Source: an uncultured Candidatus Saccharimonadales bacterium
Lineage (GTDB): Bacteria; Patescibacteriota; Saccharimonadia; UBA4664
Reading direction: 5' to 3'
Assembly (NCBI GenBank): GCA_964467655.1
Contig: CAYXSN010000003.1
Coordinates: forward strand, 34,714-98,713
Length of the DNA stretch: 64,000 bases
Of the stretch, positions 44,653-64,000 are shown one piece after another. The notes beneath the pieces are model-generated. The model did not search any database and was not told where the DNA came from. It was given only the letters and a program-made list of their open reading frames with translations. Every line of letters begins with the position of its first letter. The first letter of the stretch is position 1. A program made the translations under genes and the position numbers.

Positions 44653-45096
44653 TCAGCCGGTACTCTTAGCCAAGGCGCTAATCACGAACTGGACCAGGGC
44701 AAACGAGATAACAGCTACCACGATACCAATGACGGCGTAAAGGATAGTGTTTTTAGCCTGCTCAACATTGCTCTTCTCACCCTGAGAGATAACGTAGCGC
44801 AAACCGCCGATGATCAGGAAGATGACTGATACGGCACCTACCAGGAACACTAAAGTGTTGGCCACCGTCTGGAAGACGCCGCCTTCGGCGAACAGGTTGT
44901 TGCTCGTACCGTTAGCCTTGGCACAACTGGCACCCGAGTTCAATGGGTCTGCCGAATCGAAGCCGTCAGAACAAGCGGCATACGCCGGGGCGCTCACAGC
45001 CACTGCTGCCGCTACCGTGCCAAACCCGAAGCCAAAGACTAGGGCCAGAGCCTGCAGCGACAACGCTGTTTTCTGGGTTAATGACATGATACTCAT
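44653..45096 (-). CDS. VirB2/TrbC-like pilin-family protein, paralog 1 (signal peptide plus two transmembrane helices)
   Basis: Signal peptide, two Cys residues, then the conserved core LIIGGLRYVISQGE...AKNTILYAVIGIVVA shared with the three downstream paralogs. Confidence 0.6.
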   Translation of the reverse strand: MSIMSLTQKTALSLQALALVFGFGFGTVAAAVAVSAPAYAACSDGFDSADPLNSGASCAKANGTSNNLFAEGGVFQTVANTLVFLVGAVSVIFLIIGGLRYVISQGEKSNVEQAKNTILYAVIGIVVAVISFALVQFVISALAKSTG

Positions 45097-45174
45097 CGAC
45101 AGGTTGTCTCCTTACTATCGTTATGATATTCCAAGTTGGTCTTAGCGTAGCATATGCACAAGCGTAAGCGCAAA

Positions 45175-45498
45175 CTAACCGGCAATGGCTTGGGTCACAA
45201 ACTGAATAATGGCGTAGGCCACGATCGACACCACCACACCAACCACTGCATACAGGATCGTATTCTTAGCTTTGCCGACAGCCCCGGTATCACCTTGAGA
45301 TAACACGTACCGCAAGCCGCCGATAATAATCATAATCACCGACACACTACCCACCACAAACACCAAAATGTTGGCAATGTTAGCGATAATGTTTGATACC
45401 GACAGGTTCGTATTGCAAGCCGTGCCACAGGCGTTTTGAGCACTCTGCCCGATGATGTCTGATGCGTTCGCTAGCATAAAGCTTAAATTGTGTTCCAT
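45175..45498 (-). CDS. VirB2/TrbC-like pilin-family protein, paralog 2
   Basis: IIIGGLRYVLSQGDTGAVGKAKNTILYAVVGVVVS core. 107 aa. Confidence 0.6.
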   Translation of the reverse strand: MEHNLSFMLANASDIIGQSAQNACGTACNTNLSVSNIIANIANILVFVVGSVSVIMIIIGGLRYVLSQGDTGAVGKAKNTILYAVVGVVVSIVAYAIIQFVTQAIAG

Positions 45499-45522
45499 GA
45501 TAATCCTCGTTTCCTTGATACA

Positions 45523-45837
45523 TTAACCAGAATAAAAATCAAACCCGTCGCCAACGTTATGGGTTATAAACCACACAATCATATAAGCCGATGCCGCCAA
45601 TACAATGCCAACTACGGCGTACAAAATGGTGTTCTTGGCCGCCTTAGCTTTGCTGGGGTCGCCTTCAGAAAGAGTAAACTGCACACCCCCATACAATAGA
45701 GCTATCAACGCCAAGCCTCCGATAAGCCCCATGAGCATAAGAGTAAGATTGCTCAGACCACCGCCGATAGTATTTACATCTGTCGGCAAACCAACTTCAT
45801 CAGAGGAAATAGTGGCAGCCAGTTTCAACAAGTTCAT
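45523..45837 (-). CDS. VirB2/TrbC-like pilin-family protein, paralog 3
   Basis: LLYGGVQFTLSEGDPSKAKAAKNTILYAVVGIVLA core. 104 aa. Confidence 0.55.
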   Translation of the reverse strand: MNLLKLAATISSDEVGLPTDVNTIGGGLSNLTLMLMGLIGGLALIALLYGGVQFTLSEGDPSKAKAAKNTILYAVVGIVLAASAYMIVWFITHNVGDGFDFYSG

Positions 45838-46211
45838 CCGGCAATGCCTTTCGTCACAAAATCAACCACTGCATAGGCACCGATCAAGAGCACCAAACCG
45901 ATCACCAGATTGGTCAGAATGTCTTTGGCCCGCTTCACTCGACCGGGATCGCCCATAGAAGTTACATAATATATTGCCGCCACGATGATCATAATGACTG
46001 CCAGCGCCCCTGAAAGGGCAATCAGAATCCTCAAGAGATTGCCCACCAAAACAAAAGCATCCGACACCGCCTTCAGATGGACATTACCTGAGGCATCACA
46101 GTTCAAACCGTCCCATAAACTGGGCAGGCCACCGGTTGTAGTGCCGCACGCTCCGACGGCTTCATCTGCTGGCAGTGCCATAGGCCTCATTATAGGAAGG
46201 GGCGATAGCAA
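45834..46211 (-). CDS. VirB2/TrbC-like pilin-family protein, paralog 4
   Basis: AAIYYVTSMGDPGRVKRAKDILTNLVIGLVLL core, two Cys in the N-terminal region. Overlaps paralog 3 by 4 bp. Confidence 0.55.
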   Translation of the reverse strand: MLSPLPIMRPMALPADEAVGACGTTTGGLPSLWDGLNCDASGNVHLKAVSDAFVLVGNLLRILIALSGALAVIMIIVAAIYYVTSMGDPGRVKRAKDILTNLVIGLVLLIGAYAVVDFVTKGIAG

Positions 46212-46241: not shown

Positions 46242-49200
46242 ATGAAGTCGAGGTGGACTCTCATTGCGCTTATGGCGTGGGCCATTGTGGCACCAGCGCT
46301 CGTTGTTGTTATGCGTCCAGAAACCGCTCAAGCGGGAACACCAGCCTCCATCTTGCCGACCACATGTAACTGGACCAATACCACAACAATTACATGTAGT
46401 GGGTATCCTCAAGATGCCAGTCTAACTGTCACCTTTACACCCGACACGAGAAATCCATCAAACCCTCAACGCAGCTACAATGGCGGTACTGTCGGTACGC
46501 CAGGCGATGGAGGCACATACCAGTCTATTGAAAACGTCAGCGCCAACGGTACCAGTGGCCAATACACCGTCGATGGAACATCGCTCGGAGCCATCACGAT
46601 TGGTAATCAGGCAGCCTCAGGCCGGCCGGTCAACGCCGTCACGCCTGCCGATGCCAATGATGGTGCCGCCGATCCCGACACGGCCGTCAAATGTGACGCC
46701 GGCAAAGGCTTCACGTGGCTCATTTGCGGCACCATCGAGTGGGCCCTCAATGTGATCGATTGGATCAGAAACACCGTGCTCATCCCCATGCTCCAGCAAA
46801 AACCGTTCGACGAAGCTTCACCAGATATCGAAGCCCTCAAAAGCGTCTGGGCGGGCATGCGCAACATCGCCAGCATCGTTCTCATCCTGCTCTTCTTGCT
46901 TATTATCTTTGGGACGGCCATTGGCTACGACAACTACACCATCAAGAAAACCCTGCCCCGCCTAGTAGCCGGCGCCATCCTCATGCCATTGTCCTGGTAC
47001 ATCTGCGTCTTGCTGGTTGACCTCGGCAACATCCTAGGTGTCGGGCTCAAGGATTTAACGGCCCCCTTCATCCCTACACCGATCATTGATTTTAATTCAC
47101 CGATTTCCGAAGCTGTCTACAGCGTCGGTGGTGGTATTTTGCTCGGTGTCACTGGCTTTACCGCCTACACTGGCATGCTCTGGCCGGTATTGCTAGGCAT
47201 GGTCGTTGGCTTGGCCGGCGCCTTTCTCACCCTGGTACTGCGCAACATCTTGATTCTCGTCTTAACGGCCATTAGCCCTTTGGCAATGCTCGCCTACATA
47301 TTGCCCAATACCAAGAAATTCTATGACATGTGGCTGAGCAATTTCCTGCGCTTGATCCTCATGTTCCCTTTTATTATCTTGTTATTCCAAGCTGGCCGCC
47401 TATTTGCCGCCATCGCCGGAGCTGGCACCAATCCTATAAACACAATCTTTGCTCTTGTCGGACTGATGCTACCACTATTCTTAGTACCTTGGAGCTTTAA
47501 GACAGCTGGTCAAGCGTTGTCATTCGGTAGAGGCTACATCGATAAAGCTACTGGCATGGGCAAGCGGTACGGTTCAGACAAAATTGGCAACGCGATTAAG
47601 CGTCAGAGAGACAAAACCCGTGAAGCCAACAAAGCTCTTCGCCAGCATAACGCTATCCAGCGAGCAAAAGACATCGACAAAGAGGCCCCCACCAACCTCG
47701 GAGGTAAACTATCCAATAACGTCCGTCAACGAGTCGCCATGAAAAAAGCCGGGCATGGAGGCTTCCTTGGTGGCAAGGGTAATGTACTGCAGCAGCAAAA
47801 GTTTGAATCAGCGTACAGTGAAGCCGCCGCCACACAAGGCAAGATCGAGGCCGCCAAACTGGCTGGCGCTACCGGCACTAGCGAAACACACAAACAGCGC
47901 ATCGAAGCCGAAACCGCCATGGCACTCAAAGGCATTACCGACGGCCGGGCCAATCGTGCAGGATTCATGCAAGCTGTCGGCGAAGCCAATGGAGCCGAAC
48001 TTCCAGACAAAATGATCAGCTTCGCCCAGGCTAGTTACGCCGCCGGCACCGAATCCAGCCGTAAGAGCAATGCCAAGCTCCTCGGCACAGGAACCGGCGT
48101 TCAAGCCGCTGCCGCTGCGGGCGGTTTAGCTTCAACGGGGGCAATCGTCGCAGACGCCAGAGAAACCCAGATTGATAGCCTCAGTGACGAAAAAGGCCAG
48201 GTGGAAGGCCGCCTGATTGGTCAAAGGCACCTTGAGGACGTTGAACTCCAACGAACTGGCGTTAATCCGGCCACGGCAACGACGGCCCAAAGAGAAGCAG
48301 TCCAAAATAGGTTGCAACGCTATCGCCAAACCGATGCCCGCGTCAAAGCACGAGATACTGTACTTGAAGAAGGCGGGACCAAACGTCAGAGCCAAGCCGA
48401 TTTTACAACTCATGGATACCAAGATGTTGAGGAAGTTGAGGGTTCCGCTGCCCTCGAGCAACGTAGTAAGCTATCTACCACTCGCCAAGTCCGCCGCCAA
48501 CGCGTGGCCATCCAGGGTACAGCCGAGGGTGGCATGAGCGACGCAGATATTGAAATGGCGGCCAGTCGTGAAGCTCGCGAGAGCATTGGCGCCCAGGTCA
48601 TGAAGCAAAGGGTAGGCAACGAGACTGAGAGAGCCGACTTGGCTTCAGGTGACGCTACCCGTCGACCAACCCTCACCAACTCACTGATTGCCGCCCGAGG
48701 CCGGGCCGAAGAAAGCGCTTCCGCTGAGAGCGCCCAACGCACGGCCTACGTCAGATCTGCTCTTGGATACGAAAGCGAAAAACCATCTCGGCCATCGCTC
48801 GAAGAACGTATCCAAGATGCCTCTTTCAAAGCCACAACAGACCAGCGCACCAAAGACCTATCAGTCGGTGAGCGTCTCAGCGAAATCAGCAAGGCCGAAG
48901 ACCGGGTCCTTTTGAGCCAAAAAATCGATCCGGCTACCGCCTCAGCTGGTCAACGAGCCGATGCCAGGGCGAGCATTAGTGGCAAAATTGCCATCCAGGG
49001 CTCAGGGGAAGCCGGTTACAAAATGCGCATGGACATCGCCAAAGCCCGCGGCGAAGTCGAGGGCTTCGAAAAAGGCGTTAAGCAGCTCCAAATCGAAGAA
49101 ACTGCCAAGAACCTGCGCGAGAAAGCCATCGACGCCCATCTGGCTGCCAACACCGGCGCCACCAGAGCCGAAGCCGAAGAGGCTGTCGACAGCAATCCGG

Positions 49201-50633
49201 CCAACGATTTCAAGCGCGAGGCCGAACACAACGTTGAAGCTCTAGCCGCCGGCGCTCCGGCCCATCCCGATACTGTCACCTCGGACCAGGCCAGCCGCAT
49301 GTACCACGACGCTGGCGCCGAAAGCGCCTACACCTCAGCTGCCCAAGCCCAAGCCAATTCCATCGGCCAAGCCGTCGGTAAGGGACAGTCGGTCACAGCT
49401 GCGGTTGCTAACCGTGCGTCGACTAACCTCCTAGAGCTCGCCCGCGCCCACGGAGCAGCTCGTGGCATCACGAATGATGACCAAGCCATGGAGTCGTTCC
49501 TTGATGAACAAGTTCGCCTGACAGGCAGTGGCACGCCTGGTGTAGCCGCCGACCGCGAACAAGCCCGCCAGGCTTTACTCACGCAAATGGCCGCACAGGC
49601 TCAATCGGAAGTCATTTCTGCCGCTACGTTGGCAGGCATCGATAGCGGTGTCCGCAGTGAGGCAGCGGCCCAAGGACAACTTATCTCACAGGAAGAATCC
49701 TACAATTCGCCGACTAAATCCACAGCAGCTGATCAGCTAGAAATGGCTCGAAGAGACGCCAGTACAAACCTGGCCAGCAAAGAAGGAACCGACCAAGCCC
49801 GTTCACGCCAGCCCAAACTGGATTACTCGACAACAGTTGAGTCAACCAGGAAAGAAGCTCTTGACAAGTTCTTTGCTCAGAGAGTCCAAGAATCGGGCCG
49901 CAAATTCGTGATAGATGCCAACACCGGCAAACCAACTCCCGACCGAATCGATACTGCAGCGCCAACCAAAGATAACCAAGCCTCACTTCGTAAAATGGCA
50001 GAAGAAGCCTTCGACACGGGCGACTACGAGACCTTCGCAGCCTGCACCAATGCTTTGGGTCAAAACGGCAGTGGACGTGATATCGTCAGGGAGATTATTG
50101 AATCGAAGTTCGGATACGATGATAAGAACCGTATCAATCCTACCATCGCTGATCAGATCCGCAAAACAGCCAAAGCTAACGGCAACCCTGAATTCGACCC
50201 CGAATCATTCTTTAGTGCTGCAGTTTCGCGAATCAACAAAGATAAAGCACCATACTTATTTAAACCACGGGACGCCGCTTTTGGTAAACTACCTTCAAAT
50301 GAATTTGCGGCTCTCGATGACCGCGGCAAAATGCAGTACTTCCAGTGGGCAAGTGGCAAAGTTGGTACGACCGATGAAGCAAAGATCAGAGGTGAAGCCG
50401 TTTCCAATATGCACGAATCGGTCACCAACAAATCTCTCAAGCCCAATCCGGGCAACGCTGATTTTGATGCCATGTACCGCTACCTCTATGAGATTGATCC
50501 CACTACTAAGGCGGTTATAGGGCCAAATGCAGATAATATGAAGGCTTTTGAGGCACAATTTGGAGGGAATACTGTCAAATTCGGCCAAGCTATCGCCGAT
50601 ATTGAACGCGGCTTTAAATCACATAATGCCTAA
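46242..50633 (+). CDS. VirB6/TrbL/TraG-like polytopic membrane protein with a ~1000-aa Ala/Glu/Arg/Gln-rich C-terminal extension
   Basis: 1463 aa. N-terminal signal peptide, a Cys-containing ectodomain (~170 aa), 6-7 transmembrane helices (~aa 200-460), then a long charged low-complexity tail. Transcribed divergently from the pilin genes. Confidence 0.55.
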   Translation: MKSRWTLIALMAWAIVAPALVVVMRPETAQAGTPASILPTTCNWTNTTTITCSGYPQDASLTVTFTPDTRNPSNPQRSYNGGTVGTPGDGGTYQSIENVSANGTSGQYTVDGTSLGAITIGNQAASGRPVNAVTPADANDGAADPDTAVKCDAGKGFTWLICGTIEWALNVIDWIRNTVLIPMLQQKPFDEASPDIEALKSVWAGMRNIASIVLILLFLLIIFGTAIGYDNYTIKKTLPRLVAGAILMPLSWYICVLLVDLGNILGVGLKDLTAPFIPTPIIDFNSPISEAVYSVGGGILLGVTGFTAYTGMLWPVLLGMVVGLAGAFLTLVLRNILILVLTAISPLAMLAYILPNTKKFYDMWLSNFLRLILMFPFIILLFQAGRLFAAIAGAGTNPINTIFALVGLMLPLFLVPWSFKTAGQALSFGRGYIDKATGMGKRYGSDKIGNAIKRQRDKTREANKALRQHNAIQRAKDIDKEAPTNLGGKLSNNVRQRVAMKKAGHGGFLGGKGNVLQQQKFESAYSEAAATQGKIEAAKLAGATGTSETHKQRIEAETAMALKGITDGRANRAGFMQAVGEANGAELPDKMISFAQASYAAGTESSRKSNAKLLGTGTGVQAAAAAGGLASTGAIVADARETQIDSLSDEKGQVEGRLIGQRHLEDVELQRTGVNPATATTAQREAVQNRLQRYRQTDARVKARDTVLEEGGTKRQSQADFTTHGYQDVEEVEGSAALEQRSKLSTTRQVRRQRVAIQGTAEGGMSDADIEMAASREARESIGAQVMKQRVGNETERADLASGDATRRPTLTNSLIAARGRAEESASAESAQRTAYVRSALGYESEKPSRPSLEERIQDASFKATTDQRTKDLSVGERLSEISKAEDRVLLSQKIDPATASAGQRADARASISGKIAIQGSGEAGYKMRMDIAKARGEVEGFEKGVKQLQIEETAKNLREKAIDAHLAANTGATRAEAEEAVDSNPANDFKREAEHNVEALAAGAPAHPDTVTSDQASRMYHDAGAESAYTSAAQAQANSIGQAVGKGQSVTAAVANRASTNLLELARAHGAARGITNDDQAMESFLDEQVRLTGSGTPGVAADREQARQALLTQMAAQAQSEVISAATLAGIDSGVRSEAAAQGQLISQEESYNSPTKSTAADQLEMARRDASTNLASKEGTDQARSRQPKLDYSTTVESTRKEALDKFFAQRVQESGRKFVIDANTGKPTPDRIDTAAPTKDNQASLRKMAEEAFDTGDYETFAACTNALGQNGSGRDIVREIIESKFGYDDKNRINPTIADQIRKTAKANGNPEFDPESFFSAAVSRINKDKAPYLFKPRDAAFGKLPSNEFAALDDRGKMQYFQWASGKVGTTDEAKIRGEAVSNMHESVTNKSLKPNPGNADFDAMYRYLYEIDPTTKAVIGPNADNMKAFEAQFGGNTVKFGQAIADIERGFKSHNA

Positions 50634-50735: not shown

Positions 50736-51560
50736 ATGGGACAATACACCGTACCGCAAAACGTTGAAGCCGAAGACCATATCTTAGGCCCGCTAACGTT
50801 CAGGCAGTTCATCTACATGATGATCGGCCTGGGCTGGGTGATTATTACCTTCGCCTTGTTCCGCAAACTGATTGCGGCCTTCATTGTCATTGGTGTGCCA
50901 CCGACCATTTTGTTCATGCTGCTAGCTTTCTTCAGACGCGACGGCCAGGACTTCGAGCATTTACTGGTAGCTGTGGTCGGCTTTTTTGCCGCTCCCCGCC
51001 AGCGCTTGTGGATCAAAGAAGAAACCATCGAAACCTTCCACATCACGCCCACAGCCAAACAGGCCGAAATCACCCAACGTAACCCACAGCTAGTCATCAG
51101 TGAACTCGAGAAGTTGGCCGTGCTCATTGACTCCCGGGGCTGGAACCTGCCGACTGCCCCCGAGGTCACGCCTCAGCTCATCATGCCCAGCACACCGGCC
51201 TCGGCCCGCATCGTCCAGCCAGACAATACTCCCTCAAACATCACCGCTCCCCACACCGACATGCTCGACCTCCAAAACAGCCCGCTGGCCCAAAACCTCT
51301 CGGTGCTGCTCCAACAGTCAGCCGACCATGTCAAGCAGTCGGCGGTCAGCGGCATGACACCGGGTAGTGAACTACCCGCACCGACTCATTTTGCCACGCC
51401 CGTCAAAAGCATAAGCGGCGTGACAGGCCTCGCCCAAGACGATATACTACGGTTAGCTACCCAGAGTGAGGGAATGAGCATTGCCTCTGTTGCGGCCCAA
51501 GCCACGCGCTTGAGCCCAGACAGTGGCGCAAATGTGGAGCCAGTTGCCAATGCCAGCTAA
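50736..51560 (+). CDS. Small membrane protein (two N-terminal transmembrane helices; VirB3/PrgI-like position) with a Pro/Ser-rich tail
   Basis: FIYMMIGLGWVIITFALF and FIVIGVPPTILFMLLAFF helices lie directly upstream of the VirB4 ORFs. The VirB3 assignment rests on position only. Confidence 0.4.
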   Translation: MGQYTVPQNVEAEDHILGPLTFRQFIYMMIGLGWVIITFALFRKLIAAFIVIGVPPTILFMLLAFFRRDGQDFEHLLVAVVGFFAAPRQRLWIKEETIETFHITPTAKQAEITQRNPQLVISELEKLAVLIDSRGWNLPTAPEVTPQLIMPSTPASARIVQPDNTPSNITAPHTDMLDLQNSPLAQNLSVLLQQSADHVKQSAVSGMTPGSELPAPTHFATPVKSISGVTGLAQDDILRLATQSEGMSIASVAAQATRLSPDSGANVEPVANAS

Positions 51561-52284
51561 TTCAGCCAGCAAAACCGGGAAAAGCACCCAACAAACGCTT
51601 TTGATTTCCGAAATCAAAGATGGCGTGGTAGTTTTGCGTGACGGCTCCATTAGAGGCGTCATCCTCGGGAGTGCCATCAACTTTGAGCTCATGAGCAGTC
51701 AGGAGCAACAAGGCATCGAGATGGCCTACCAGAGCTTCCTCAACTCACTTCATTTCCCAATCCAAATTGTCATTCGTTCAGAACGCATCGACCTGTCAGC
51801 CTACATCGACAGGATGCAAGCCAAGCGCACCGAGCAATCAAACGAGTTGTTGGGTGCCCTCATGGACGATTACATCGCCAATGTTAAATCGCTGGTCGAT
51901 GAGGTCAACATTATGGACAAGCAGATCTACATTGTGGTGCCATATTTCCCCGATGTAGCCACAGGCAAATCACCGGCGCTCGTCAAAAACATCAAAAATG
52001 CATATAGCACCCCACCAGACATTACGATCACCGAAGAAGAATTCAAGGCCTACAAACAAGAATTGTCAGAACGGATGGCCTTGGTCTCGAGCGGCCTCGG
52101 CCAGATCGGCATCAGGGCGCTGGCACTTGGCACCCAAGAACTAGTCGATCTCTACTATACCTGGTACAACCCCGACATCGCCCACAACCAGAAGCTGATT
52201 GAAGCCGAGCAGCTCACGGCTCCCGTGGTCCTCAAAGGCGACGGCCGAGCACCCCACACCACCATTGAGGGAGGTCCTTTCTGA
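51523..52284 (+). CDS. VirB4/TrbE-family N-terminal domain, encoded as a separate ORF
   Basis: LLISEIKDGVVVLRDGSIRGVILGSAINFELMS...GIEMAYQSFLNSLHFPIQIVIRS matches the VirB4 N-terminal region. Its stop overlaps the next start (TGATG). Confidence 0.55.
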   Translation: MAQMWSQLPMPANSASKTGKSTQQTLLISEIKDGVVVLRDGSIRGVILGSAINFELMSSQEQQGIEMAYQSFLNSLHFPIQIVIRSERIDLSAYIDRMQAKRTEQSNELLGALMDDYIANVKSLVDEVNIMDKQIYIVVPYFPDVATGKSPALVKNIKNAYSTPPDITITEEEFKAYKQELSERMALVSSGLGQIGIRALALGTQELVDLYYTWYNPDIAHNQKLIEAEQLTAPVVLKGDGRAPHTTIEGGPF

Positions 52285-54173
52285 TGGGACTTTTTGGCCC
52301 ACCCAAACCCAAAGTTGATCCTGGGGCTCTGGCTGCCTACCAGCAAGCTATGGAGCAACGCGAGGCCGAGCTCATTTACCGCCAAGGCATCATCACCATG
52401 CGCGACCTCATTGCGCCTTCGTCATTGGAGATCGACGCCAATTACCTGAGGATTGGCAAACGCTATTGCAAGACGCTCTACGTGTATGGCTACCCCCGCC
52501 AGGTGTTCACCGGTTGGCTGTCGCCAATTATCAACCTCGATGAAATCATCGACATCTCACTTTACATCTACCCCGTGGAATCGCGCGTCGTTCTCGACAA
52601 CTTACGCAAAAAAGTCACCCAGATGGAAGCTTCGTATGCCATCAACGAAGAGAAAGGCAAAGTGCGCGACCCAGGCCTTGAAGCCGCGCTCCAGGACGCC
52701 GAAGAGCTCAGGGACAAGCTCCAAGTTGGCGAAGAGCGGTTCTTCAGGTTTGGTATGTATCTCACGATGTACGCCGATTCCATTGACGCCATGACCGATC
52801 TCAACCGCAAAATCGAGGGCATTTTCGGCCAGTCGCTGGTGTACACCAAAGCCGCCACCATGCAGATGGAGCAAGGCTTCAACTCCACGAGTCCCTTGGC
52901 CAACGACCAGCTCCAGATCTCGCGCAACATGGACACCGGAGCCCTGTCCACCAGCTTCCCGTTCACTTCAGCTGAACTATCTCGCAACGAAGGCATCCTT
53001 TACGGCCTCAACCGCCACAACAACGGCCTGGTGCTTTTCGACAGGTTCTCGCTCGAAAACGCCAACATGGTGGTATTCGCTAAATCCGGTGCCGGTAAAT
53101 CGTTTTCCATCAAACTTGAAGCCTTGCGCTCTCTCATGATGGGCATCGAAATTATCGTAATTGACCCCGAAAACGAGTACAAAACCCTCTGCGAAGCCGT
53201 TGGCGGCACCTATCTGCGCCTCAGTTTGGCCAGTCAAACTCGCATCAACCCCTTCGACCTGCCGCGAGTATTCGACCAAGATGAAGCCGACAACGCCCTC
53301 CAAGCCAACATTATTACACTGCACGGCCTGTTGCGCCTCATGATCGGTGGCGCCACAGTCTCAAACTCCACCGGCGCCACCAGCGTAACCTCCCTTACTC
53401 CCAGCGAAGACGCCGACCTCGATCTGGCAATCATCAATACCTACGCCCGCGCCGGTATCACCCGCGACCCCCTCACCCACAATGCCACCCCGCCCACCAT
53501 GAACGATCTCTACAATACTCTGGCCTCCATGACGGGCAACGGCCCCGACCTGGCCATGAGGCTACGCAAATTCACCACCGGCACGTTCTCGGGTATTTTT
53601 TCAGAGCAATCAAACGTCGAAATCAACAACCCCTTCCTGGTATTCAACATTCGCGACCTCGAAGACGAACTACGGCCCATCGGCATGTACATCGTGCTCA
53701 ACTACATCTGGAACAAGGTCAAATCAGATCGTCGCAAACGCATCCTAGTAGTCGACGAAGCCTGGCAACTTATGAAGTACGACGACTCAGCCGCCTTCAT
53801 GTTTAGCCTGGCCAAACGGGCCCGCAAATACTTCCTCGGCCTCACCACCATCTCCCAAGACGTCGAGGACTTCTTAAGCAACAAAATGGGCCGGGCCGTG
53901 GTCGCCAACTCATCACTCCAGCTCTTACTCAAGCAAGCCCCTTCAGCCGTCGACATTATTGGCGAAACCTTCAAGCTCACGAACGAAGAAAAAGCCAGGC
54001 TCACCGAATTCCCGGTGGGAGAAGGCTTATTCTTCGCTGGACTCAATCACGTCATCATCAGAGTCCTGGCGTCCGAAACCGAAGCCAGCCTCATTAGCAC
54101 CAATCCAGCCGACAAAGGTCAGGCGCCATCAGCCCCCACTGAAACATCAGCGCCAGCGGAACAAGGAGCATAA
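52284..54173 (+). CDS. virB4: Type IV secretion/conjugation ATPase VirB4 (TrbE/TraE/PrgJ-like), central and C-terminal ATPase region
   Basis: Walker A FAKSGAGKSFSIK and Walker B ILVVDEAWQLM. The VirB4 middle region (LIAPSSLEIDANYLRIGKRYCKTLYVYGYPRQVFTGWL) is also present. 629 aa. Confidence 0.88.
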   Translation: MGLFGPPKPKVDPGALAAYQQAMEQREAELIYRQGIITMRDLIAPSSLEIDANYLRIGKRYCKTLYVYGYPRQVFTGWLSPIINLDEIIDISLYIYPVESRVVLDNLRKKVTQMEASYAINEEKGKVRDPGLEAALQDAEELRDKLQVGEERFFRFGMYLTMYADSIDAMTDLNRKIEGIFGQSLVYTKAATMQMEQGFNSTSPLANDQLQISRNMDTGALSTSFPFTSAELSRNEGILYGLNRHNNGLVLFDRFSLENANMVVFAKSGAGKSFSIKLEALRSLMMGIEIIVIDPENEYKTLCEAVGGTYLRLSLASQTRINPFDLPRVFDQDEADNALQANIITLHGLLRLMIGGATVSNSTGATSVTSLTPSEDADLDLAIINTYARAGITRDPLTHNATPPTMNDLYNTLASMTGNGPDLAMRLRKFTTGTFSGIFSEQSNVEINNPFLVFNIRDLEDELRPIGMYIVLNYIWNKVKSDRRKRILVVDEAWQLMKYDDSAAFMFSLAKRARKYFLGLTTISQDVEDFLSNKMGRAVVANSSLQLLLKQAPSAVDIIGETFKLTNEEKARLTEFPVGEGLFFAGLNHVIIRVLASETEASLISTNPADKGQAPSAPTETSAPAEQGA

Positions 54174-54179
54174 GAGGAA

Positions 54180-57100
54180 ATGGCACTGCGTTCTGCCGCC
54201 GGTCTCAAATCTAGCTCCGGCATGGAGCCACCCCGCCAGACGTTCAAAGATGCTCTGGTAGCCCAGAAAGCTTCAAGTAGCCAGAAAACAACTACCGCCC
54301 AAAAGCCGGTTATGACGCAAATGTCACCGATGGGCGGCAGTCAAACCTCCAAGCCCGACACCATCACTAGACCCCGTAATGAATCAATCAACGAACCCAA
54401 TACGGCGTCCAATACCAGCATCGCACCTTCGTCTCAGGCCGCCGACCTCAAAACCGGAGATAGCAAATTCGATGCCGTCCACGGCGACAACCGCGGTCAG
54501 CAAATGGTCGCCAACGCCGGCACCGCCCGGCCCGAAGCCAATGACGACGCCTGGGCCTCACCCGACGCCACGGCATCCTCCAATGCTGGTGGCCCACCAG
54601 ACTCGGGTGGAAAAGCGGGCGTCATGTCTCCGGGCGCCGATCCAAACCGTGCCAGTCAATCTAGAATACCTGGCAATGATGCCGAGGCCCGAGCCAACTA
54701 CGCCAACAACGTCAGTAACGGCCCGGTCGGCCGCCGGATTGCCGGCAAGACGTTCGATTTTGCCAACCGTCACCGTAAATCGCTGATCTTTGGCGGCGGC
54801 GGCATGGGTATTGTCCTAGCGTTAATCTTTGCCACGCTTGCCTTCTTGCCCCTCAAACTTGAATCATTCATGAATAACGTTATCAGCAACGAAGGCAAGC
54901 GGATGGAGCATTACGCCACGCGGCGCGCCGAGATCATGACCTACCGCTACCTCATGAACGCCGCCAACGGCACTATTGAATCAGACCCTTTGTATACCAG
55001 CTCCAATATCGTCAGGATGATGTGGGGTAACTTCCAGAAAGACAGGTTTATCGAGAAACTCCAGACTTCCAAAGGCATCACAGTGGAAAGGGGTGGCAGC
55101 GCCGGCAGTATCAGATTCACGACCGCCAGTGGCCAAGTAGTGGAAGCGAGTAATCTGAGTCAGCTCATGGACGTCCTCAAAAGCAATCCAGCCGGTACTG
55201 GCATTGAGGCAGAAATTGGCAAGTTCATGGAAAACGAGTACAAATGGTTCCGTATCTTTCAGCGCCGCTCTATCAGATACTACTTAGCCAAAGCTTACGG
55301 TATCAAACGCTGGAGCATCGACAAAAAAGAAGACAAGGTTGACCCGAAGTCCAAGGTACACAGCACCGAAATCCAGGCGCGCGAACTGGCCCTCGATGGA
55401 CCAAATGAAAAAACCATCAATGCCATCGGTTGTGTCGCCGCACCCGAAAACTGCAACGGCGAAGACTCCAATCGCCGCAGTACCGACCCCAATGGCGAAT
55501 CAACAATCGACCCGCCAAATACCACTGGGGGCAATGAAGAAGAGTCCAAAGCTCAGGCCGAAGCCAAAAAAGGTTTGCTTGAGCGCTACCGCAACCTCAA
55601 AACTACTGCCGGCAACAAAATTCTAGCGACCCTCACCGAACTGATTGGTAGTGAAGTGATAGCGAAAGGTATTCTGAAAGCCGTACCCTTCATCGGCTGG
55701 ATCTCGTTTGCGGCCGACATCGACCATTTCATCTGGGGTGGTAGCTGGTCGCAAGTCGGCATCAATCTGCGCGCCTTGCAATACGTAAGCGTCGCCCAAA
55801 CCTGGGCTACCCTCAAAGACCAGATGAAGGCCGATGAGCTGACTGCCAGCCAAATCAATGTGCTTATGCTTATGCTCGACGGCATTGAAAAATCAAACGC
55901 TTTCCAGCGCACCAATTCAGCCAATACCAATGGCGGTGTCACCATCCCGGAAGAAAAACGGGTAGGCAGCGATGGTGCCTTTATCGATCCCGAACCGGCC
56001 GGTCAGGGTATTTGCGGCATTACCTATCCACTGTCAAACGAATACCGGGGCATCCCGGTAAACGGCTTGTCTATTACCAACTACGAACCCTGGACGCTCC
56101 TGTACCGTCGTGTAGTCACAACACCACTGCTGATTGGCGCCGGCAACGTTCACTTTGACCTCTGTACTTTCAGGGCCGTATTCCAGCGTTTTATGGGCGT
56201 CATCATGCTTGGGGTCAAGAACATTCCGGGTGTCGGGCAGTTTATCTCTACATTCCAGACCCTCACTCAGTTTGTTATGCAAACCGAAATCATTCAGCGC
56301 CTCGTCGAGCAGGGCAGCCACTACGTCACGGCCTTCCTCGAACGTGTCTTCGGACTGGTATACAACGGCGAATGGGGGGCGCCACTCGCCAACACCATTG
56401 ACGGTGGCTGGGAAGTAATCACAAATGCCGTCACCCGTGACCACATGGGTGGTAAGGCCATTAGCTATAGCCTCAGCTATGAACAAACCACCCAGTACGC
56501 TCTTGAGGACCAACAGAAACTCAATGCCGAGGGACCCTTTGCTAGTCTGCTCGCTTGGAATACGCCAGGCTCAACCGGCTCTAAACTACTGGCAGCCTTA
56601 CCATCAACCCCATCAGCTCTCGCCAACCGTTTTACCGATCTCGCCAGCAGCCTCTTTTTACACCCCGCCAGTTATTTCAGTAAATTAGCGTACAACTTTA
56701 GTACCGGTAGTCTGGCCGTCGATCCAGCCAGCTTGCGCTCTCCCGCAGGCGTCATGCACATTGGCTTTGATGCTGCCGAGGTCAACGACAGCAACATCTA
56801 CATTGCCGTCAAAGACATCAACGGACCACCAGTCAATGGCGCCTACCCCGGCCAGCCCGACGGCCGCATCGATGAGTACGACTGCATCGAAGGGAGCGGT
56901 AGTGGCGAGAGCTTGCACATAGTCGGTACTACTGACAGGGCCGATGACATCACCAAAACCAACCGCTGCCTCTACGATACCTCAGTGGCCCTACCGCTCT
57001 GCTCCGGCGGCTCCTCCAATGACGACGGGGGACTGGGCCAAGGCGGCGATCCCGGTCCATGTGGCCGTGTCGCTGGCACCTCAGCTACAGGCCAAGCCGG

Positions 57101-57977
57101 CAGCCCGCTCACCGCCAACTGGATGTCCGGCGCCAGCTTCATGCAGGGCGATTACAACGGTACACCCAAGACAACTGGTTTCGGCACGTGGCGTAACAGT
57201 TCACCGGTCACCATTGTGGGCACCTGGTGCGACAAGCCAGGCTGTACCGATGGATCCGCCGCCAATGATTACGACTCATTCAACGGCGCCATGGACATCG
57301 CCATCGGCGGCATCTTCAAACAAAACGGCGAATCCTGGTCGGCCGCCGCCGGCGGAGCCTACAATTCTCGTTGGCAAGGTGCCATCAGCAACATCGCCTC
57401 CCACCGCCAGGGTAAAGGCCTCACATTCATCAGGTTTGCTCACGAAGCCAATATGAACTTCTCAGACTGGAGCGTCATGCCGGGTGAAGAAGCCAACTAC
57501 ATTACTACTTTCTGCAACGTAGCCAACATGGCGCACGCCGCCGGTCTCAAGGTGACCTGGTCGCTCAATGACGGCACACTGGGCGGCGCTGCCGGCCCTG
57601 CCACCATGTATCCCGGTGACGCCTGCGTCGACGTCGTGGGACCCGACACCTACGACTGGGACACGCCTCAGGTATCGGTCGTAAATGGTCAGGTTACCGG
57701 TATCGAATCATGGCGCCAGTTTGCCCTAAGCCACAACAAGCCCCTAGCCTTCCCCGAATGGGGCGCCAACAACACCCAAGGCCAGACCAAAGATAACCCC
57801 GCCTACATCACCGCCATGAACACGTTCATGGCTACCAACGGCGGATCAGGCCCAGGCCAGTTCATCTATGACATCTATTTCAATGAAGACGAGAGTGGCT
57901 ACCGCATCGGATTATGGCCAACCGCCGATGTCCCGCAGATGGCTAACACCTATAAAGCTCTCAAGTGGGGGAATTAA
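54180..57977 (+). CDS. Large single-pass surface protein with a C-terminal glycoside-hydrolase-like (clan GH-A, GH26/GH5-like) TIM-barrel domain
   Basis: 1265 aa. Disordered N-terminal ~210 aa, transmembrane helix GGGGMGIVLALIFATLAFLPL, and a ~1000-aa exodomain. C-terminal FIRFAHEANM (candidate acid/base Glu) and LAFPEWG (candidate nucleophile Glu). Confidence 0.5.
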   Translation: MALRSAAGLKSSSGMEPPRQTFKDALVAQKASSSQKTTTAQKPVMTQMSPMGGSQTSKPDTITRPRNESINEPNTASNTSIAPSSQAADLKTGDSKFDAVHGDNRGQQMVANAGTARPEANDDAWASPDATASSNAGGPPDSGGKAGVMSPGADPNRASQSRIPGNDAEARANYANNVSNGPVGRRIAGKTFDFANRHRKSLIFGGGGMGIVLALIFATLAFLPLKLESFMNNVISNEGKRMEHYATRRAEIMTYRYLMNAANGTIESDPLYTSSNIVRMMWGNFQKDRFIEKLQTSKGITVERGGSAGSIRFTTASGQVVEASNLSQLMDVLKSNPAGTGIEAEIGKFMENEYKWFRIFQRRSIRYYLAKAYGIKRWSIDKKEDKVDPKSKVHSTEIQARELALDGPNEKTINAIGCVAAPENCNGEDSNRRSTDPNGESTIDPPNTTGGNEEESKAQAEAKKGLLERYRNLKTTAGNKILATLTELIGSEVIAKGILKAVPFIGWISFAADIDHFIWGGSWSQVGINLRALQYVSVAQTWATLKDQMKADELTASQINVLMLMLDGIEKSNAFQRTNSANTNGGVTIPEEKRVGSDGAFIDPEPAGQGICGITYPLSNEYRGIPVNGLSITNYEPWTLLYRRVVTTPLLIGAGNVHFDLCTFRAVFQRFMGVIMLGVKNIPGVGQFISTFQTLTQFVMQTEIIQRLVEQGSHYVTAFLERVFGLVYNGEWGAPLANTIDGGWEVITNAVTRDHMGGKAISYSLSYEQTTQYALEDQQKLNAEGPFASLLAWNTPGSTGSKLLAALPSTPSALANRFTDLASSLFLHPASYFSKLAYNFSTGSLAVDPASLRSPAGVMHIGFDAAEVNDSNIYIAVKDINGPPVNGAYPGQPDGRIDEYDCIEGSGSGESLHIVGTTDRADDITKTNRCLYDTSVALPLCSGGSSNDDGGLGQGGDPGPCGRVAGTSATGQAGSPLTANWMSGASFMQGDYNGTPKTTGFGTWRNSSPVTIVGTWCDKPGCTDGSAANDYDSFNGAMDIAIGGIFKQNGESWSAAAGGAYNSRWQGAISNIASHRQGKGLTFIRFAHEANMNFSDWSVMPGEEANYITTFCNVANMAHAAGLKVTWSLNDGTLGGAAGPATMYPGDACVDVVGPDTYDWDTPQVSVVNGQVTGIESWRQFALSHNKPLAFPEWGANNTQGQTKDNPAYITAMNTFMATNGGSGPGQFIYDIYFNEDESGYRIGLWPTADVPQMANTYKALKWGN

Positions 57978-59260
57978 TAACAGCCATGCTCAAGCGTTTT
58001 ACCACCATTCTCGTCCTCGCACTTACAGCACAGCTGGCGTTTGCCCCGACTGCTAAAGCCATTTTCAACTACGACAATAAAGCAGTTACCAAAGAATACA
58101 TCTATTGGGACAACCGGGTGACTGCCGATTGCCCCAGCGCCACCGACCTGTCAGGAAACAGTCCTACCGGCACCGATTCGGCGGCAGCCGCTGCCCGCAA
58201 GAAAGTTATTTGGGATTTTCTTACAGCTCCCGGCCGTCTGACAGCCCCTCAAGCTGCTGGGGTACTGGCCAATATGACAGTTGAAAGTGCCCATACTTTT
58301 GATCCAACGATTGTGCAGGGCGGTACCTATAAAGCCACGCCTGAAGGCGTGAATAACGGTTACGGCATCGTGCAATGGACTCCCGGCACCAAACTACTGA
58401 AATATGCCGACATTGCCGCAAACCCCACGCTCGGAGGCAACCTCACCCGCCAGCTGAACGTCCTATGGGACCAGCTAACCAATGCGAGCTCGCCGTTACC
58501 GGAAAAGGCTGCCGGCGACGCCCTCAAAGCCACCACTACAGCCGAGCAAGCTGCCGTAGCCTTTATGATCGGGTATGAGCGGCCGGCCGACAAGTCACTG
58601 GATGCCCGAGACGGCCGCGCAGCCTTAGCCAACCCCATCCTCGTCGAAATGACCGGCGGCACCAGTGGCACGATTACGCCTCTAACGACCACAAATGGCA
58701 CTCCCGTCACCACATCATCAAGCTGCCCGTCGGCTACATCCCAAGCCAGCGCTAGCATTGATACAGCCCATATGTTTGAGTCATCAGTGAGTATCCAATG
58801 TGCTCCCGGCACAACTGATGCCGGCGTTCAAGACGGCTACCACAATGGTATCATGGTCAAGATCAGGGTCTGCGCCATACCAAACTTTCCATGCACCAAT
58901 GAAGAATGCCAGGAACTCGGCAATGGTCATGCCCTAGTGAACTCCCGAGCCTCTGGCGCAATCCTCAAGATGATTACCGACGCCATAGCTGCCCGTGATC
59001 AAGCAGGTAAGAGTTATCAGATCAACGCGTCATCAACCTTCCGTACTATGGCCCACCAGACAGCCCTCTATAATGCGCCTCACTCCGATCCAGTTGCCAA
59101 ACCCGGCTTCTCCAATCACCAGATGGGCCTAGCGATCGATTTCGGCTTCTGGAAAAATACCAATACCGGACTCTATGATTGGCTCAAAGCCAACGCCTCG
59201 CGATATGGCTACCAGCAACTGCCAAGTGAAGTTTGGCACTGGTCCACCAATGGTGGTTAA
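57965..59260 (+). CDS. Secreted bifunctional cell-wall hydrolase: phage-tail-lysozyme-like domain plus peptidase-M15 (VanY/D-Ala-D-Ala carboxypeptidase-like) domain
   Basis: Signal peptide MLKRFTTILVLALTAQLAFAPTAKA. N-terminal domain ANMTVESAHTFDP...GYGIVQWTPG. C-terminal domain SNHQMGLAIDF (SxHxxGxAxD) plus EVWHW (ExxH). Confidence 0.7.
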   Translation: MGELITAMLKRFTTILVLALTAQLAFAPTAKAIFNYDNKAVTKEYIYWDNRVTADCPSATDLSGNSPTGTDSAAAAARKKVIWDFLTAPGRLTAPQAAGVLANMTVESAHTFDPTIVQGGTYKATPEGVNNGYGIVQWTPGTKLLKYADIAANPTLGGNLTRQLNVLWDQLTNASSPLPEKAAGDALKATTTAEQAAVAFMIGYERPADKSLDARDGRAALANPILVEMTGGTSGTITPLTTTNGTPVTTSSSCPSATSQASASIDTAHMFESSVSIQCAPGTTDAGVQDGYHNGIMVKIRVCAIPNFPCTNEECQELGNGHALVNSRASGAILKMITDAIAARDQAGKSYQINASSTFRTMAHQTALYNAPHSDPVAKPGFSNHQMGLAIDFGFWKNTNTGLYDWLKANASRYGYQQLPSEVWHWSTNGG

Positions 59261-59287: not shown

Positions 59288-60775
59288 ATGCGCCTAAAAC
59301 TTATCCTCCTAGCCCTCGGCATTACGATACTAGCTGCCAGTGCCAGCCTCTGGAACTATTCAAGGATTCAAATGAGCGTGCCCAACATCTCTGGTGAGTA
59401 CACCATCACCCTAGAGAACCAAGCCGATGGCAAAGCCACCGTCACCAAGACTAGCTCCAAGTCTTTCAGCAAAATCGTCAGCAAAGGCTCCTACCGGGTC
59501 ATTGTGACCCAGGGCCAAAACTCCCGCTTCTTTCTCATTGATACAGCTCCGTTTTTGGCGACCACCAGCGTCACCGCCGAGCTTCAGACCCAGATCGCCC
59601 GCAGTTACATCGGCAACAGCCCCGGGGACTGCTTTTACCTAATCGCCAATGTTGCCCTTTCCAGCACTTGTACCGGTAGTCAGAGCCACATGACGTTACA
59701 CACACCAGCCACGGCCACCCAAGCCAGCTACAACCAGGATTACATCACCATCAGAGGCCGGTTCATGGACAGTCTCGAAACCGCCGGCGGCACAATAGTG
59801 TTGAGCCAGTCCATTGGTGATAGCGGTCCGCTGCTGCATCTGTTTACCGGTAAACTCGAACCCGCCAAATCAACTGAACTTTCAGGTCTGAAAGCCGGTG
59901 TTGAGTATCGCTTAAGCAATTATAAAGCTGGCTTTTTAGTCCATAACTTTGATTTTTCGGACGTCCAGTACTATTCGGCCTTCGGTGCCGCTGCTCAAAG
60001 CGTCACGTTTGAGGCTGCTCAAACCAAAGCATCCAAGCCCTCGGCAGTAGCCACCAACAACCAAGCGACAGCTGTAGCCTATTTCTCTGAGCGTTCCGAA
60101 GAAGACCAAGGCAAAAATATCACTGAAATCGTCTTGTCGACTCCCGGCAAAGCCACCCAGCATTTTACCACCCAAGGCCATATCACCAAACTCATGTTCT
60201 GCTCAACCCAAACTCTGTGCGCCCTCAACAGCTTGGGCAGTAGCCTGCAAGTTTACAAGCTTGAGGACAAGGGGATAGACAACGATTTTGACATCAAAGA
60301 TGTTTCAGATTTCTTACTCTATCAGAACCAGATTGTGGCCGCCCAAGGCAAAAGTGTTTACCGCATTAATCCTGATGACCAATCAGGCTTCCAAGAATAC
60401 AGCTTTGGTGCCTATAACTTCTGCGGCTTCAGCCCCGCACCCAACGGCTACGTACTCTGCATCGCTGGCGCCAAAAACGGCCGGGCGCTCCTGAGACTTG
60501 ATGAAACAGCCGCCATCATCAACTCGGGTGCCATCGACCAGCAGTTAGCAAGCCTAAGTACCAAAACCGACATCATTAACCAGATCAGCGCCTACGGCCG
60601 GTTTATCACGGTAGTCCCCAAAGGTGACCTCATCATGAACTGGACCGCCCGCCGCCTTGAGCCAGACCCCGTAAAACAAGCCACCATCAACGGTCAAATC
60701 AATGCCACCATCAACGAACTTGGTATTGATAGAAGCAAGTACCAGATTTCAATTACCGCACCTCTCGGTGATTAA
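59288..60775 (+). CDS. Secreted hypothetical protein (495 aa) at the distal end of the T4SS-like cluster
   Basis: Signal peptide MRLKLILLALGITILAASASL. Composition looks beta-strand-rich. No known motif. Confidence 0.5.
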   Translation: MRLKLILLALGITILAASASLWNYSRIQMSVPNISGEYTITLENQADGKATVTKTSSKSFSKIVSKGSYRVIVTQGQNSRFFLIDTAPFLATTSVTAELQTQIARSYIGNSPGDCFYLIANVALSSTCTGSQSHMTLHTPATATQASYNQDYITIRGRFMDSLETAGGTIVLSQSIGDSGPLLHLFTGKLEPAKSTELSGLKAGVEYRLSNYKAGFLVHNFDFSDVQYYSAFGAAAQSVTFEAAQTKASKPSAVATNNQATAVAYFSERSEEDQGKNITEIVLSTPGKATQHFTTQGHITKLMFCSTQTLCALNSLGSSLQVYKLEDKGIDNDFDIKDVSDFLLYQNQIVAAQGKSVYRINPDDQSGFQEYSFGAYNFCGFSPAPNGYVLCIAGAKNGRALLRLDETAAIINSGAIDQQLASLSTKTDIINQISAYGRFITVVPKGDLIMNWTARRLEPDPVKQATINGQINATINELGIDRSKYQISITAPLGD

Positions 60776-60786
60776 AACTGACGCCC

Positions 60787-61083
60787 CTAAATCGAGCTGA
60801 TCGTAATCATTACCCTCACGCGCCCCGGCTGGCCAGGTACAGGGGTAGGGGAGCCACTCGTCTTCAAACCAGCCAGAGCCACCAGCTCCAGCTGACGCAT
60901 CCGCAACGCTCCAGCTACAGCCGCACTTGACGTCACGAGTCTTAAAGTTCCCTGGTGCCACTGACGGGCCCTCACTTTACCCGGATACCATTCATCCACC
61001 ACCTTTTGAACCACTTCCAACACATCCTGGCGGTCAAGCCCTAATTGCTGACGCTTGTGTTCAAAATAAGCCGGATCTATCAT
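60787..61083 (-). CDS. DUF721/DciA-like small protein downstream of recF
   Basis: 98 aa in the conserved dnaA-dnaN-recF-DUF721 position. Overlaps the recF stop by 4 bp. The sequence match is weak (KRQQLGL...LVTSSAAVAGALRMRQLEL). Confidence 0.45.
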   Translation of the reverse strand: MIDPAYFEHKRQQLGLDRQDVLEVVQKVVDEWYPGKVRARQWHQGTLRLVTSSAAVAGALRMRQLELVALAGLKTSGSPTPVPGQPGRVRVMITISSI

Positions 61084-63539: not shown

Positions 63540-64000
63540 TCATCCAGTCAGTCCCAGCTGCTCGCGTACTGCCATTATGTCGCTACGCAAGACATCATCC
63601 GAGTCGATCAACTTTTCCAGCTTTTGTACCGAGTGCATGGCGGTTGTATGATCGCGGCCACCCACAGCTGCAGCAATCTTCGGAAAACTCAGGTCGAGGT
63701 CGGCTCTCATGAGATACATAGCAATTTGCCGAGGCACCACGATTTCTTTGTCCCGTTTAGGGCCTTCAAGATCGGCGACCGTCAGATCAAAATATCTGGC
63801 TACCCGCTCCAGTACGGTTTTGGCGTTGGTGACTCTCAGCCGTGGCCGAGCCGCCGCATCGCTAGCCAGCAAGCTGCGCACCCGTTCGAGTGACATCGAG
63901 CCTTGTTTATGCTCAAGATCAGCCAGTACTTTTGTGAGCGTACCTTCTAGCTCCCTGATGTTGTGCTGGGCATGGCGGGCAATAAAATCAACAACCTCCA
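63540..64000 (-). CDS. dnaA: Chromosomal replication initiator DnaA (C-terminal part; the gene runs past the window edge)
   Basis: Domain IV HTH PRQIAMYLMR...GGRDHTTAMHSVQKL. The frame is open to position 64000 (…VVDFIARHAQHNIRELEGTLTKVLADL). Confidence 0.9.
   Translation of the reverse strand, partial: EVVDFIARHAQHNIRELEGTLTKVLADLEHKQGSMSLERVRSLLASDAAARPRLRVTNAKTVLERVARYFDLTVADLEGPKRDKEIVVPRQIAMYLMRADLDLSFPKIAAAVGGRDHTTAMHSVQKLEKLIDSDDVLRSDIMAVREQLGLTG

Follow-up and report, generated by a model that had tools for sequence, protein, structure and literature searches.

A glycoside hydrolase family 26 domain at the tip of a VirB4-adjacent protein in a Patescibacterial type IV secretion system locus

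The stretch of DNA analysed here (the window) comprises 64,000 nucleotides of contig CAYXSN010000003.1 (assembly GCA_964467655.1, positions 34,714 to 98,713 of the forward strand) from an uncultured Candidatus Saccharimonadales bacterium, and it contains a type IV secretion system (T4SS) locus. Its VirB4 gene ends at 54173, and 6 nt past that stop begins the gene considered in this report. As stated in the initial annotation of the window, the gene thus lies directly downstream of VirB4. The open reading frame (ORF), 54180..57977 (+), is intact, with an ATG start, a TAA stop and an AGAGGA Shine-Dalgarno-like site directly 5′ of it, and it encodes 1265 aa. The protein can be divided as follows.

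54180..54791 (+), aa 1-204: N-terminal low-complexity region, predicted to be cytoplasmic, terminating in a conserved GRRIAGxTFDFAxxHRKSLI box
54792..54860 (+), aa 205-227: single transmembrane helix (Kyte-Doolittle), with an LPLKLE motif next to it
54861..57065 (+), aa 228-962: conserved, mostly helical exodomain (family profile, AlphaFold2 (AF2) model)
57066..57104 (+), aa 963-975: variable linker rich in Gly/Ser/Thr/Ala, right after a conserved GGDPGPCG (aa 955-962)
57105..57974 (+), aa 976-1265: predicted glycoside hydrolase family 26 (GH26) catalytic domain, an (α/β)8 barrel (homology, AF2, Foldseek)
57444..57446 (+): codon of Glu1089 (RFAHEAN), predicted general acid/base (CtLic26A alignment, conservation, AF2 model)
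57756..57758 (+): codon of Glu1193 (AFPEWG), predicted nucleophile (CtLic26A alignment, conservation, AF2 model)

The Kyte-Doolittle profile (19-residue windows) has its maximum, 2.23, at aa 209-227 and does not exceed 1.6 in any other segment. The basic residues RHRK stand just before this helix, and an N-in/C-out topology is therefore predicted, which leaves an exodomain of ~1040 aa. This agrees well with the initial annotation, which had described a protein crossing the membrane once, its N-terminus disordered and in the cytoplasm, with an exodomain of ~1000 aa. The N-terminal region is composed of 15% A, 13% S, 10% G and 8% P, its first ~190 aa being rich in Ala, Ser, Gly, Pro and Asn, and it is partially conserved across three close orthologues. 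The full-length protein matches no Pfam family, and in NCBIfam it gives only a spurious match to EvgA (0.018). A homology query with the whole protein returned 3 proteins, probably because of the low-complexity N-terminus, and later queries were split by domain.

Judged from its sequence and its predicted structure, the C-terminal ~290 aa is a divergent member of GH26 with an intact active site. Two motifs were pointed out in the initial annotation, and both are present: FIRFAHEANM at aa 1083-1092 (nt 57426-57455) and LAFPEWG at aa 1189-1195 (nt 57744-57764). In a phmmer comparison of the C-terminal 295 aa with the PDB sequences, GH26 chains were matched at 7.5e-05, and in the alignment HEAN is paired with the HEAN of the lichenase CtLic26A and PEW with its AEF. 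By this alignment and by residue count, Glu1089 and Glu1193 correspond to E109 and E222 of CtLic26A, which we take to be the acid/base and the nucleophile of that enzyme. Queried against the database, the domain brought up 38 proteins, and most of them are 31-41% identical to it over 86-100% of its length. Most of these homologues bear a precomputed PF02156 annotation (including homologues with 37-41% identity over 88-100% of the domain), and the PF02156 cut-off was passed by four of the five that were rescanned. A profile built from the 38 homologues matched 39 chains in PDB, all of them GH26 enzymes or fusions or designs built on one, with a best value of 1.2e-17. The paired catalytic glutamates that the initial annotation had expected in an alignment are there: Glu1089 and Glu1193 are invariant in the 38 sequences. 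Moreover, the Arg and His of R-x-A-H-E are near-invariant, and the Tyr of D-x-Y-D is invariant.

The AF2 model of the domain (predicted local distance difference test, pLDDT, 88.6; predicted template modelling score, pTM, 0.90) consists of eight strands alternating with helices. In this model E1089 lies just past strand 4 (model residues 108-112) and E1193 on strand 7 (model residues 215-221), and such a predicted placement is the "4/7" arrangement of clan GH-A. In a Foldseek search of PDB with the model, the 27 best matches were all GH26 (CtLic26A with E 1.1e-12 and a template modelling (TM) score of 0.70-0.75), followed by GH5 and other TIM-barrel hydrolases. The GH-A-like TIM barrel of the initial annotation is therefore recovered by model and fold search, and appears to be specifically GH26. 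Across the three close orthologues the GH26 part is the best conserved, with 74-75% identity versus 56% in the middle domain, which argues for a selected and probably functional enzyme. We consider it highly probable that a GH26 domain is carried here by a member of a VirB4-adjacent protein family of the Patescibacterial T4SS. To our knowledge, no clan GH-A domain is known on any T4SS component, and in the literature we found no report of GH26 in Saccharibacteria or on a T4SS component; a literature search on the CtLic26A catalytic residues gave nothing pertinent either.

The middle domain belongs to a much larger family. The window protein has only three close relatives, 56-62% identical to it, and a query with the middle region adds two distant orthologues, P0055 and P0056, with 33-37% identity across the whole region. 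An exhaustive search with a profile of the middle domain yielded 838 representatives of 50%-identity clusters with E<=1e-3, of which 606 reach E<=1e-10. These representatives are from ~750 to ~1570 aa long, and the closest ones cover the domain end to end. Despite the size of the family, there is no Pfam model for this domain. The AF2 model, based on 64 sequences, is nearly all helical (pLDDT 83.0, pTM 0.88). Foldseek found no match to it at E<=0.001 either in PDB (best 2.1) or among the predicted viral structures of BFVD (best 0.43). The comparison of the sequence profile with PDB produced nothing significant, the best E value being 0.35 for SLX1, which we take as chance. From the model, we conclude that the middle ~735 aa probably form a scaffold of a so far undescribed fold. 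A phage tape-measure-like or a VirB8/NTF2-like domain was considered and is unsupported, since there is no fold or profile match.

LPLKLE, located where the transmembrane helix ends on the outer side, is invariant in 5 orthologues, and its P40 and K42 are near-invariant in 64 sequences. Family-wide, the conserved positions are mostly Cys, Gly and Pro in addition to LPLKLE, and the role of the domain therefore looks structural, not catalytic. The conserved Cys residues are compatible with an extracytoplasmic location. The middle domain represents a large uncharacterised family specific to the Patescibacterial T4SS. A scan of the genome collection found only one species representative, CP064960.1 (complete, 1.32 Mb), in which the gene is split into three ORFs, P0006-P0008 (280, 121/174 and 860 aa; L003 9488-13205). 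The split is probably due to assembly frameshifts rather than to pseudogene formation, because intact 1239-aa copies from the same cluster are present in other assemblies.

Comparison of the family members shows that their C-terminal modules are swapped. Up to and including GGDPGPCG, the sequences of P0055 and P0056 can be aligned with that of the window protein; they then continue into wholly different tails of 147-198 aa, which bear H-x-x-G-x-A-x-D and H-x-H motifs. The identity between orthologues falls to 11-22% in the linker. Pfam scans of these two tails were empty, as was a phmmer search of PDB with the P0055 tail, and in BLASTP this tail matched the VanY domain encoded further downstream in the window only at SxHxxGxAID (E 1.4). 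Among the best 150 representatives and three extra orthologues, 110 tails are at least 100 aa long, and 100 of these 110 fall in one similarity cluster. With a profile of 20 tail sequences, matches were obtained to the N-terminal domains of Hedgehog proteins, located at the motifs of the zinc ligands (E 0.004); 6n7g is in this group. Modules were counted in these 153 sequences (the best 150 of 838 representatives plus 3) by iterative local searches seeded with Pfam-verified examples, with the following result.

Hedgehog-like LAS tail: 37/153
VanY/M15B tail: 17/153
EEP + M23 tail: 20/153
M23 alone: 8/153
EEP + CHAP tail: 4/153
GDSL esterase tail: 8/153
GH26 tail: 4/153, one clade, with a single representative at 50% identity

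The remaining tails are short or unclassified. Further scans of the unclassified ones revealed a GH73 glucosaminidase with a C39_2 peptidase, a GDPD phosphodiesterase, and weak M74-like LAS matches. Judged by sequence, every recognisable module is of a hydrolase type that would act on envelope polymers, namely on murein peptides or glycan, on phosphodiester-linked polymers or lipids, or on esters. LAS-type tails are present in at least 54 of the 153 members (37 Hedgehog-like and 17 VanY-like). Since the family usually ends in a peptidoglycan peptidase, a hydrolase at the VirB4-adjacent slot is the rule, and GH26, found in 1 of the best 150 representatives at 50% identity, is a rarity. The initial annotation had called a carbohydrate-active domain on such a protein unusual; this holds for GH26, but not for the presence of a hydrolase at this position, which is usual. 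In the window protein the Hedgehog/DD-peptidase (LAS) tail is absent and GH26 stands in its place; the module is variable and does not strictly define the family.

The neighbouring gene is relevant here as well. The VanY module encoded at 57965-59260 is homologous to the tails of 17 family members (compare P0089). In other loci the downstream gene encodes Phage_lysozyme2 with no other recognisable domain, with C39_2 or with M23, or else an Amidase_3 protein is found instead. The VanY homology and the varied pairings suggest that modules are exchanged between the two neighbours. A DD-peptidase is kept in trans in the GH26 clade, and so the change to GH26 seems to be a gain of capability and not simply a loss.

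The other genes of the locus are listed below.

44653..46211 (-): four VirB2-like pilin paralogues, tandem, divergent (PF18895 at 2e-8 to 2e-12 in all four)
46242..50633 (+): extended VirB6/TrbL-like protein, 1463 aa (PF19590 TrbL_3, in the precomputed gene table only)
50736..51560 (+): PrgI/VirB3-like protein (PF12666 at 5.4e-13)
51523..52284 (+): TrsD/TraC-like protein (NCBIfam TrsD 9.1e-09; PF26593 TraC-like in the precomputed table)
52284..54173 (+): VirB4 ATPase of the CD1110 monoderm type (NCBIfam conju_CD1110 7.7e-107, 358 bits with a cut-off of 325; Pfam P-loop_TraG)
57965..59260 (+), called gene from 57986: exported peptidoglycan hydrolase, Phage_lysozyme2 (PF18013, 3.1e-24) + VanY/M15B DD-peptidase (PF02557, 1.6e-08)
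59288..60775 (+): 495-aa exported protein with no family match and a signal-anchor-like N-terminus, last in the T4SS operon
60787-63247 (-) and onward: DciA-like ORF, recF and dnaN; dnaA begins near 63540 and leaves the window

A Pfam-A scan of the 1463-aa VirB6/TrbL-like protein gave no match. VirB4 is split in this locus: the TrsD/TraC-like gene corresponds to the N-terminal part of a canonical VirB4 and abuts the ATPase gene. The pilin array is transcribed divergently from the VirB6-VirB4 operon, and such arrays are typical of Patescibacterial T4SSs. The product of 57965-59260 has a signal-peptide-like N-terminus in translation. The position of the 495-aa protein is taken in other loci by a PEGA-domain protein or by a 475-aa unknown protein. 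Because recF, dnaN and dnaA are its neighbours, the T4SS abuts the replication origin. The published signature of the T4SS of Patescibacteria (Candidate Phyla Radiation) consists of a monoderm-type VirB4 with TrsD and PrgI, VirB2-like pilin arrays, no relaxase nearby and a location adjacent to the origin (PMC12102498). By this signature, the locus in the window is a Patescibacterial T4SS. The VirB2-like pilin arrays have been reported to be essential in Candidatus Southlakia epibionticum.

For synteny, we compared the loci of P0055 and P0056 and those of two distant members, P0098 and P0093, picked for their unusual tails. In all five loci examined, including that of the window, the family gene lies between VirB4 and the peptidoglycan hydrolase. 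The complete order VirB6-PrgI-TraC-like-VirB4-family member-hydrolase-recF-dnaN-dnaA is found in the window (L001) and in L004, L009 and L010; L005, a short contig with P0056, includes only the central part of this order.

The best known counterpart is found in S. epibionticum ML1, the only species with genetic studies (Wang et al. 2023). In its T4SS locus, SEML1_0006-0019, VirB4 (SEML1_0008) is followed by SEML1_0007 (3342 bp, 1113 aa), by a lysozyme/cysteine-peptidase protein (SEML1_0006), and by a PEGA protein (SEML1_0005) (PMC10633639). A PEGA protein occupies the position of SEML1_0005 likewise in L004 and L010. For SEML1_0007, a structure-based annotation with 6n7g as template places a Hedgehog/DD-peptidase domain at 951-1105, and in transposon sequencing (Tn-seq) the gene was scored GD/ES/ES, i.e. 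growth-defective and then essential (PMC10633639 Tables S1/S2). A 2025 survey mentioned it only as a "peptidase homologue encoded immediately downstream of virB4" (PMC12102498). The existence of the VirB4-adjacent family is only implicit in published tables. SEML1_0007 and the window protein share the slot after VirB4 and before a Phage_lysozyme2 hydrolase, in T4SS loci that have VirB2-like pilin arrays and lie next to dnaA-dnaN-recF, as well as an enzyme at the extreme C-terminus and a similar size (1113 vs 1265 aa). They differ in the tail, which is Hedgehog/DD-peptidase (LAS) in SEML1_0007 and GH26 here; orthologues of the window protein share the Hedgehog/DD-peptidase-type tail with SEML1_0007. 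By analogy in position, size, topology and tail type, the window protein is best described as a member of an SEML1_0007-type family.

There are also functional parallels with the VirB1-like hydrolases of monoderm conjugative T4SSs, PrgK of pCF10, TraG of pIP501 and TcpG of pCW3, which are modular proteins encoded in T4SS operons and open the envelope for the channel (PMC12102498). These proteins combine a lytic transglycosylase or lysozyme with CHAP or LytM, are active on peptidoglycan, and have neither a clan GH-A domain nor a scaffold of ~735 aa. PrgK and TraG are anchored in the membrane by an N-terminal helix. Pfam and NCBIfam found no lysozyme/transglycosylase, CHAP or LytM domain in the 1265-aa protein; such domains are on the product of 57965-59260. 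Neither in sequence nor in fold was any similarity to VirB1-like hydrolases found for aa 1-962 (Pfam, NCBIfam, Foldseek, PDB profile), and the likeness is functional only. With CtLic26A (the CelH lichenase of C. thermocellum; PDB 2bv9, 2cip, 2v3g) the predicted GH26 domain shares the (α/β)8 barrel, at the TM-score given above, the H-E-x-N acid/base motif past strand 4, the Tyr of D-x-Y and the nucleophile Glu on strand 7. Unlike CtLic26A, it is fused to a T4SS membrane protein and not to carbohydrate-binding modules or dockerins, and it belongs to an uncharacterised subfamily of proteins secreted by high-GC bacteria.

Relatives of the GH26 domain occur as standalone proteins, 280-500 aa long and rich in Gly, Ala, Arg and Pro, whose N-termini resemble signal peptides or those of lipoproteins. 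Only two of them are assigned to named organisms, Kineosporiaceae and Modestobacter, and both are from Actinomycetota, the host phylum of cultivated Saccharibacteria. A PASTA domain is present on one GH26 relative; P0039 has PASTA together with collagen-like repeats. The closest relative, P0017 (52% identity), is encoded by a 5′-truncated gene on a contig of 64-66% GC. In a midpoint-rooted neighbour-joining tree (no outgroup), the fused clade falls within the standalone set. These observations are compatible with a capture of GH26 from high-GC bacteria, and do not prove it. A recent transfer of the GH26 part, as judged by composition, is unconvincing because its GC content at third codon positions (GC3) is near the value of VirB4. 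Nothing about function could be learned from the genes around the standalone relatives. Tandem pairs of GH26 paralogues occur at L006 6001-8605 and L011 1560-4382, one in a Kineosporiaceae metagenome-assembled genome and one in a second organism, whose paralogue copy is low in Gly, Ala, Arg and Pro. Many members of the GH26 subfamily have in common an N-terminal motif, LVGIAAIAGAGxEVRHVMKVxGPDP.

The following mechanism may be proposed. The N-terminal tail would stay in the cytoplasm, and the single helix would anchor the protein in the membrane. The ~735-aa helical scaffold would project outward, and the short flexible linker would bear the enzyme at its tip. In a small clade, the usual peptidoglycan-peptidase tip appears to have been replaced by a GH26 domain which, to judge from its residues, would be a catalytically intact retaining β-glycanase, working by double displacement with E1089 as acid/base and E1193 as nucleophile. 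From its anchored position at the secretion machine, this enzyme could locally cut a β-linked envelope polysaccharide other than peptidoglycan, the likeliest target being a secondary cell-wall glycan or a capsule on the targeted host bacterium. The peptidoglycan would be opened by the lysozyme/DD-peptidase of the next gene, and the VirB2-like pilus or channel might then reach or cross the wall of the partner. Of the two options in the initial annotation, remodelling of the organism's own envelope and action on a partner or host cell surface, we favour the second and in particular the host wall, because the scaffold reaches far, the tips differ from lineage to lineage and the domain has the provenance described above. 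We hold this host-directed role of GH26 at the T4SS tentatively, with somewhat less than even confidence. It can be extended further: the tip of this T4SS subunit may be an exchangeable, host-matched "warhead", lineages swapping hydrolases in order to breach the envelope of their own host, and this clade may have taken GH26 from the Actinomycetota which it parasitises, against a host-specific secondary wall glycan. This extension is speculative and we regard it as possible, with the balance against it.

We infer the physical association with the T4SS, the catalytic activity, the substrate and the choice of a host over a self target, and several observations weigh against the proposed mechanism. 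It is the conserved gene order that ties the protein to the T4SS, and the homology to SEML1_0007 comes from position, size and architecture, not from sequence comparison. A C-terminal family match, anticipated in the initial annotation, was obtained with the homologue profile, phmmer and Foldseek, all of which give GH26, but the sequence alone stays under the PF02156 threshold, with 14.5 bits (gathering 20.2) and E 0.022 over a short stretch. Among characterised enzymes the lichenase CtLic26A comes closest, yet the structural alignment gives only 17-18% identity, too little to infer a substrate from it. An actinobacterial origin is based on the outgroup-less neighbour-joining tree and on composition, and in GC3 the GH26 part, at 0.715, does not clearly stand out from VirB4 (0.70) and the middle domain (0.63). 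Finally, nothing separates a host from a self target.

The enzyme might instead be an assembly factor directed at the cell's own surface, where GH26 would trim the extracellular polysaccharide (EPS), an S-layer glycan or a wall polysaccharide to make way for the channel or pilus, in a VirB1/PrgK role on a layer other than peptidoglycan. The VirB1-like hydrolases of monoderm T4SSs indeed act on the wall of the donor (PMC12102498), S. epibionticum requires its own EPS biosynthesis genes (PMC10633639), and a membrane tether keeps the enzyme near its own envelope. However, the ~735-aa scaffold and the flexible linker place it far from its own membrane, a variety of modules such as GDPD, EEP and GDSL suits varied partner envelopes more than a conserved self envelope, and the closest relatives of the GH26 domain come from high-GC bacteria rather than Patescibacteria. 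On this evidence a self-directed function seems rather unlikely, although it deserves serious consideration.

The slot of the domain and its catalytic residues bear on two further roles. The characterised GH26 enzymes that were matched all depolymerise glycans of plant or algal type, and a phosphoglucose isomerase gene in the window suggests that hexoses are usable; a surface-displayed GH26 could accordingly harvest sugars from mannan, β-glucan or xylan, its fusion next to the T4SS serving as a mere anchor. This would be at odds with two findings: GH26 fills the slot which in the other family members with a recognised module is that of an envelope hydrolase, and in all loci examined the scaffold keeps its place within the T4SS operon. 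Nor does the locus contain a linked sugar transporter or a downstream glycosidase. We consider a nutritional function improbable. The GH26 fold could also act as a lectin, docking the T4SS to a glycan of the partner surface that it binds but does not hydrolyse. As a speculation, Wang et al. propose that host-associated glycans are targeted, for adhesion or degradation, by essential envelope proteins of Saccharibacteria that have glycan-binding domains (PMC10633639). In our protein both glutamates, invariant in 38 sequences, are kept together with the residues of R-x-x-H-E-x-N and D-x-Y-D. Lectins derived from inactivated glycosidases normally lack one catalytic glutamate. A non-catalytic adhesin is thus very improbable in our judgement. 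It is because the slot is that of envelope hydrolases and the catalytic residues are kept that nutrition and lectin roles are the less likely ones.

These results are of interest in view of what is known about these systems. No T4SS before the Patescibacterial one had been reported as indispensable for the survival of its own carrier. The Patescibacterial T4SS has no recognisable relaxase or coupling protein, and its role is enigmatic (PMC10633639, PMC12102498, PMC12857230). The gene after VirB4 defines a very large family that combines an orphan scaffold with a swappable tip of envelope hydrolases, and a glycanase not directed at peptidoglycan in one clade points to non-murein envelope polymers as possible barriers for the machine. 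If the idea of a host-matched tip is true, the type of module would be both a genetic predictor and a determinant of the Patescibacterial host range. The family-wide picture makes the role of the essential T4SS more testable, in the engagement of hosts by ultrasmall epibionts and in their host range. Moreover, an uncharacterised GH26 subfamily in high-GC bacteria is brought to attention, whose natural substrate may be a bacterial wall glycan. For specialists in T4SSs, GH26 is likely to be a moderate surprise, and the scaffold with swappable tips is probably of more interest.

Upstream of the T4SS, the window contains two ORFs with no Pfam match, 37812-39416 (+) of 534 aa and 40150-42063 (-) of 637 aa. 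The GC skew is negative over the entire window (-0.09 to -0.20).

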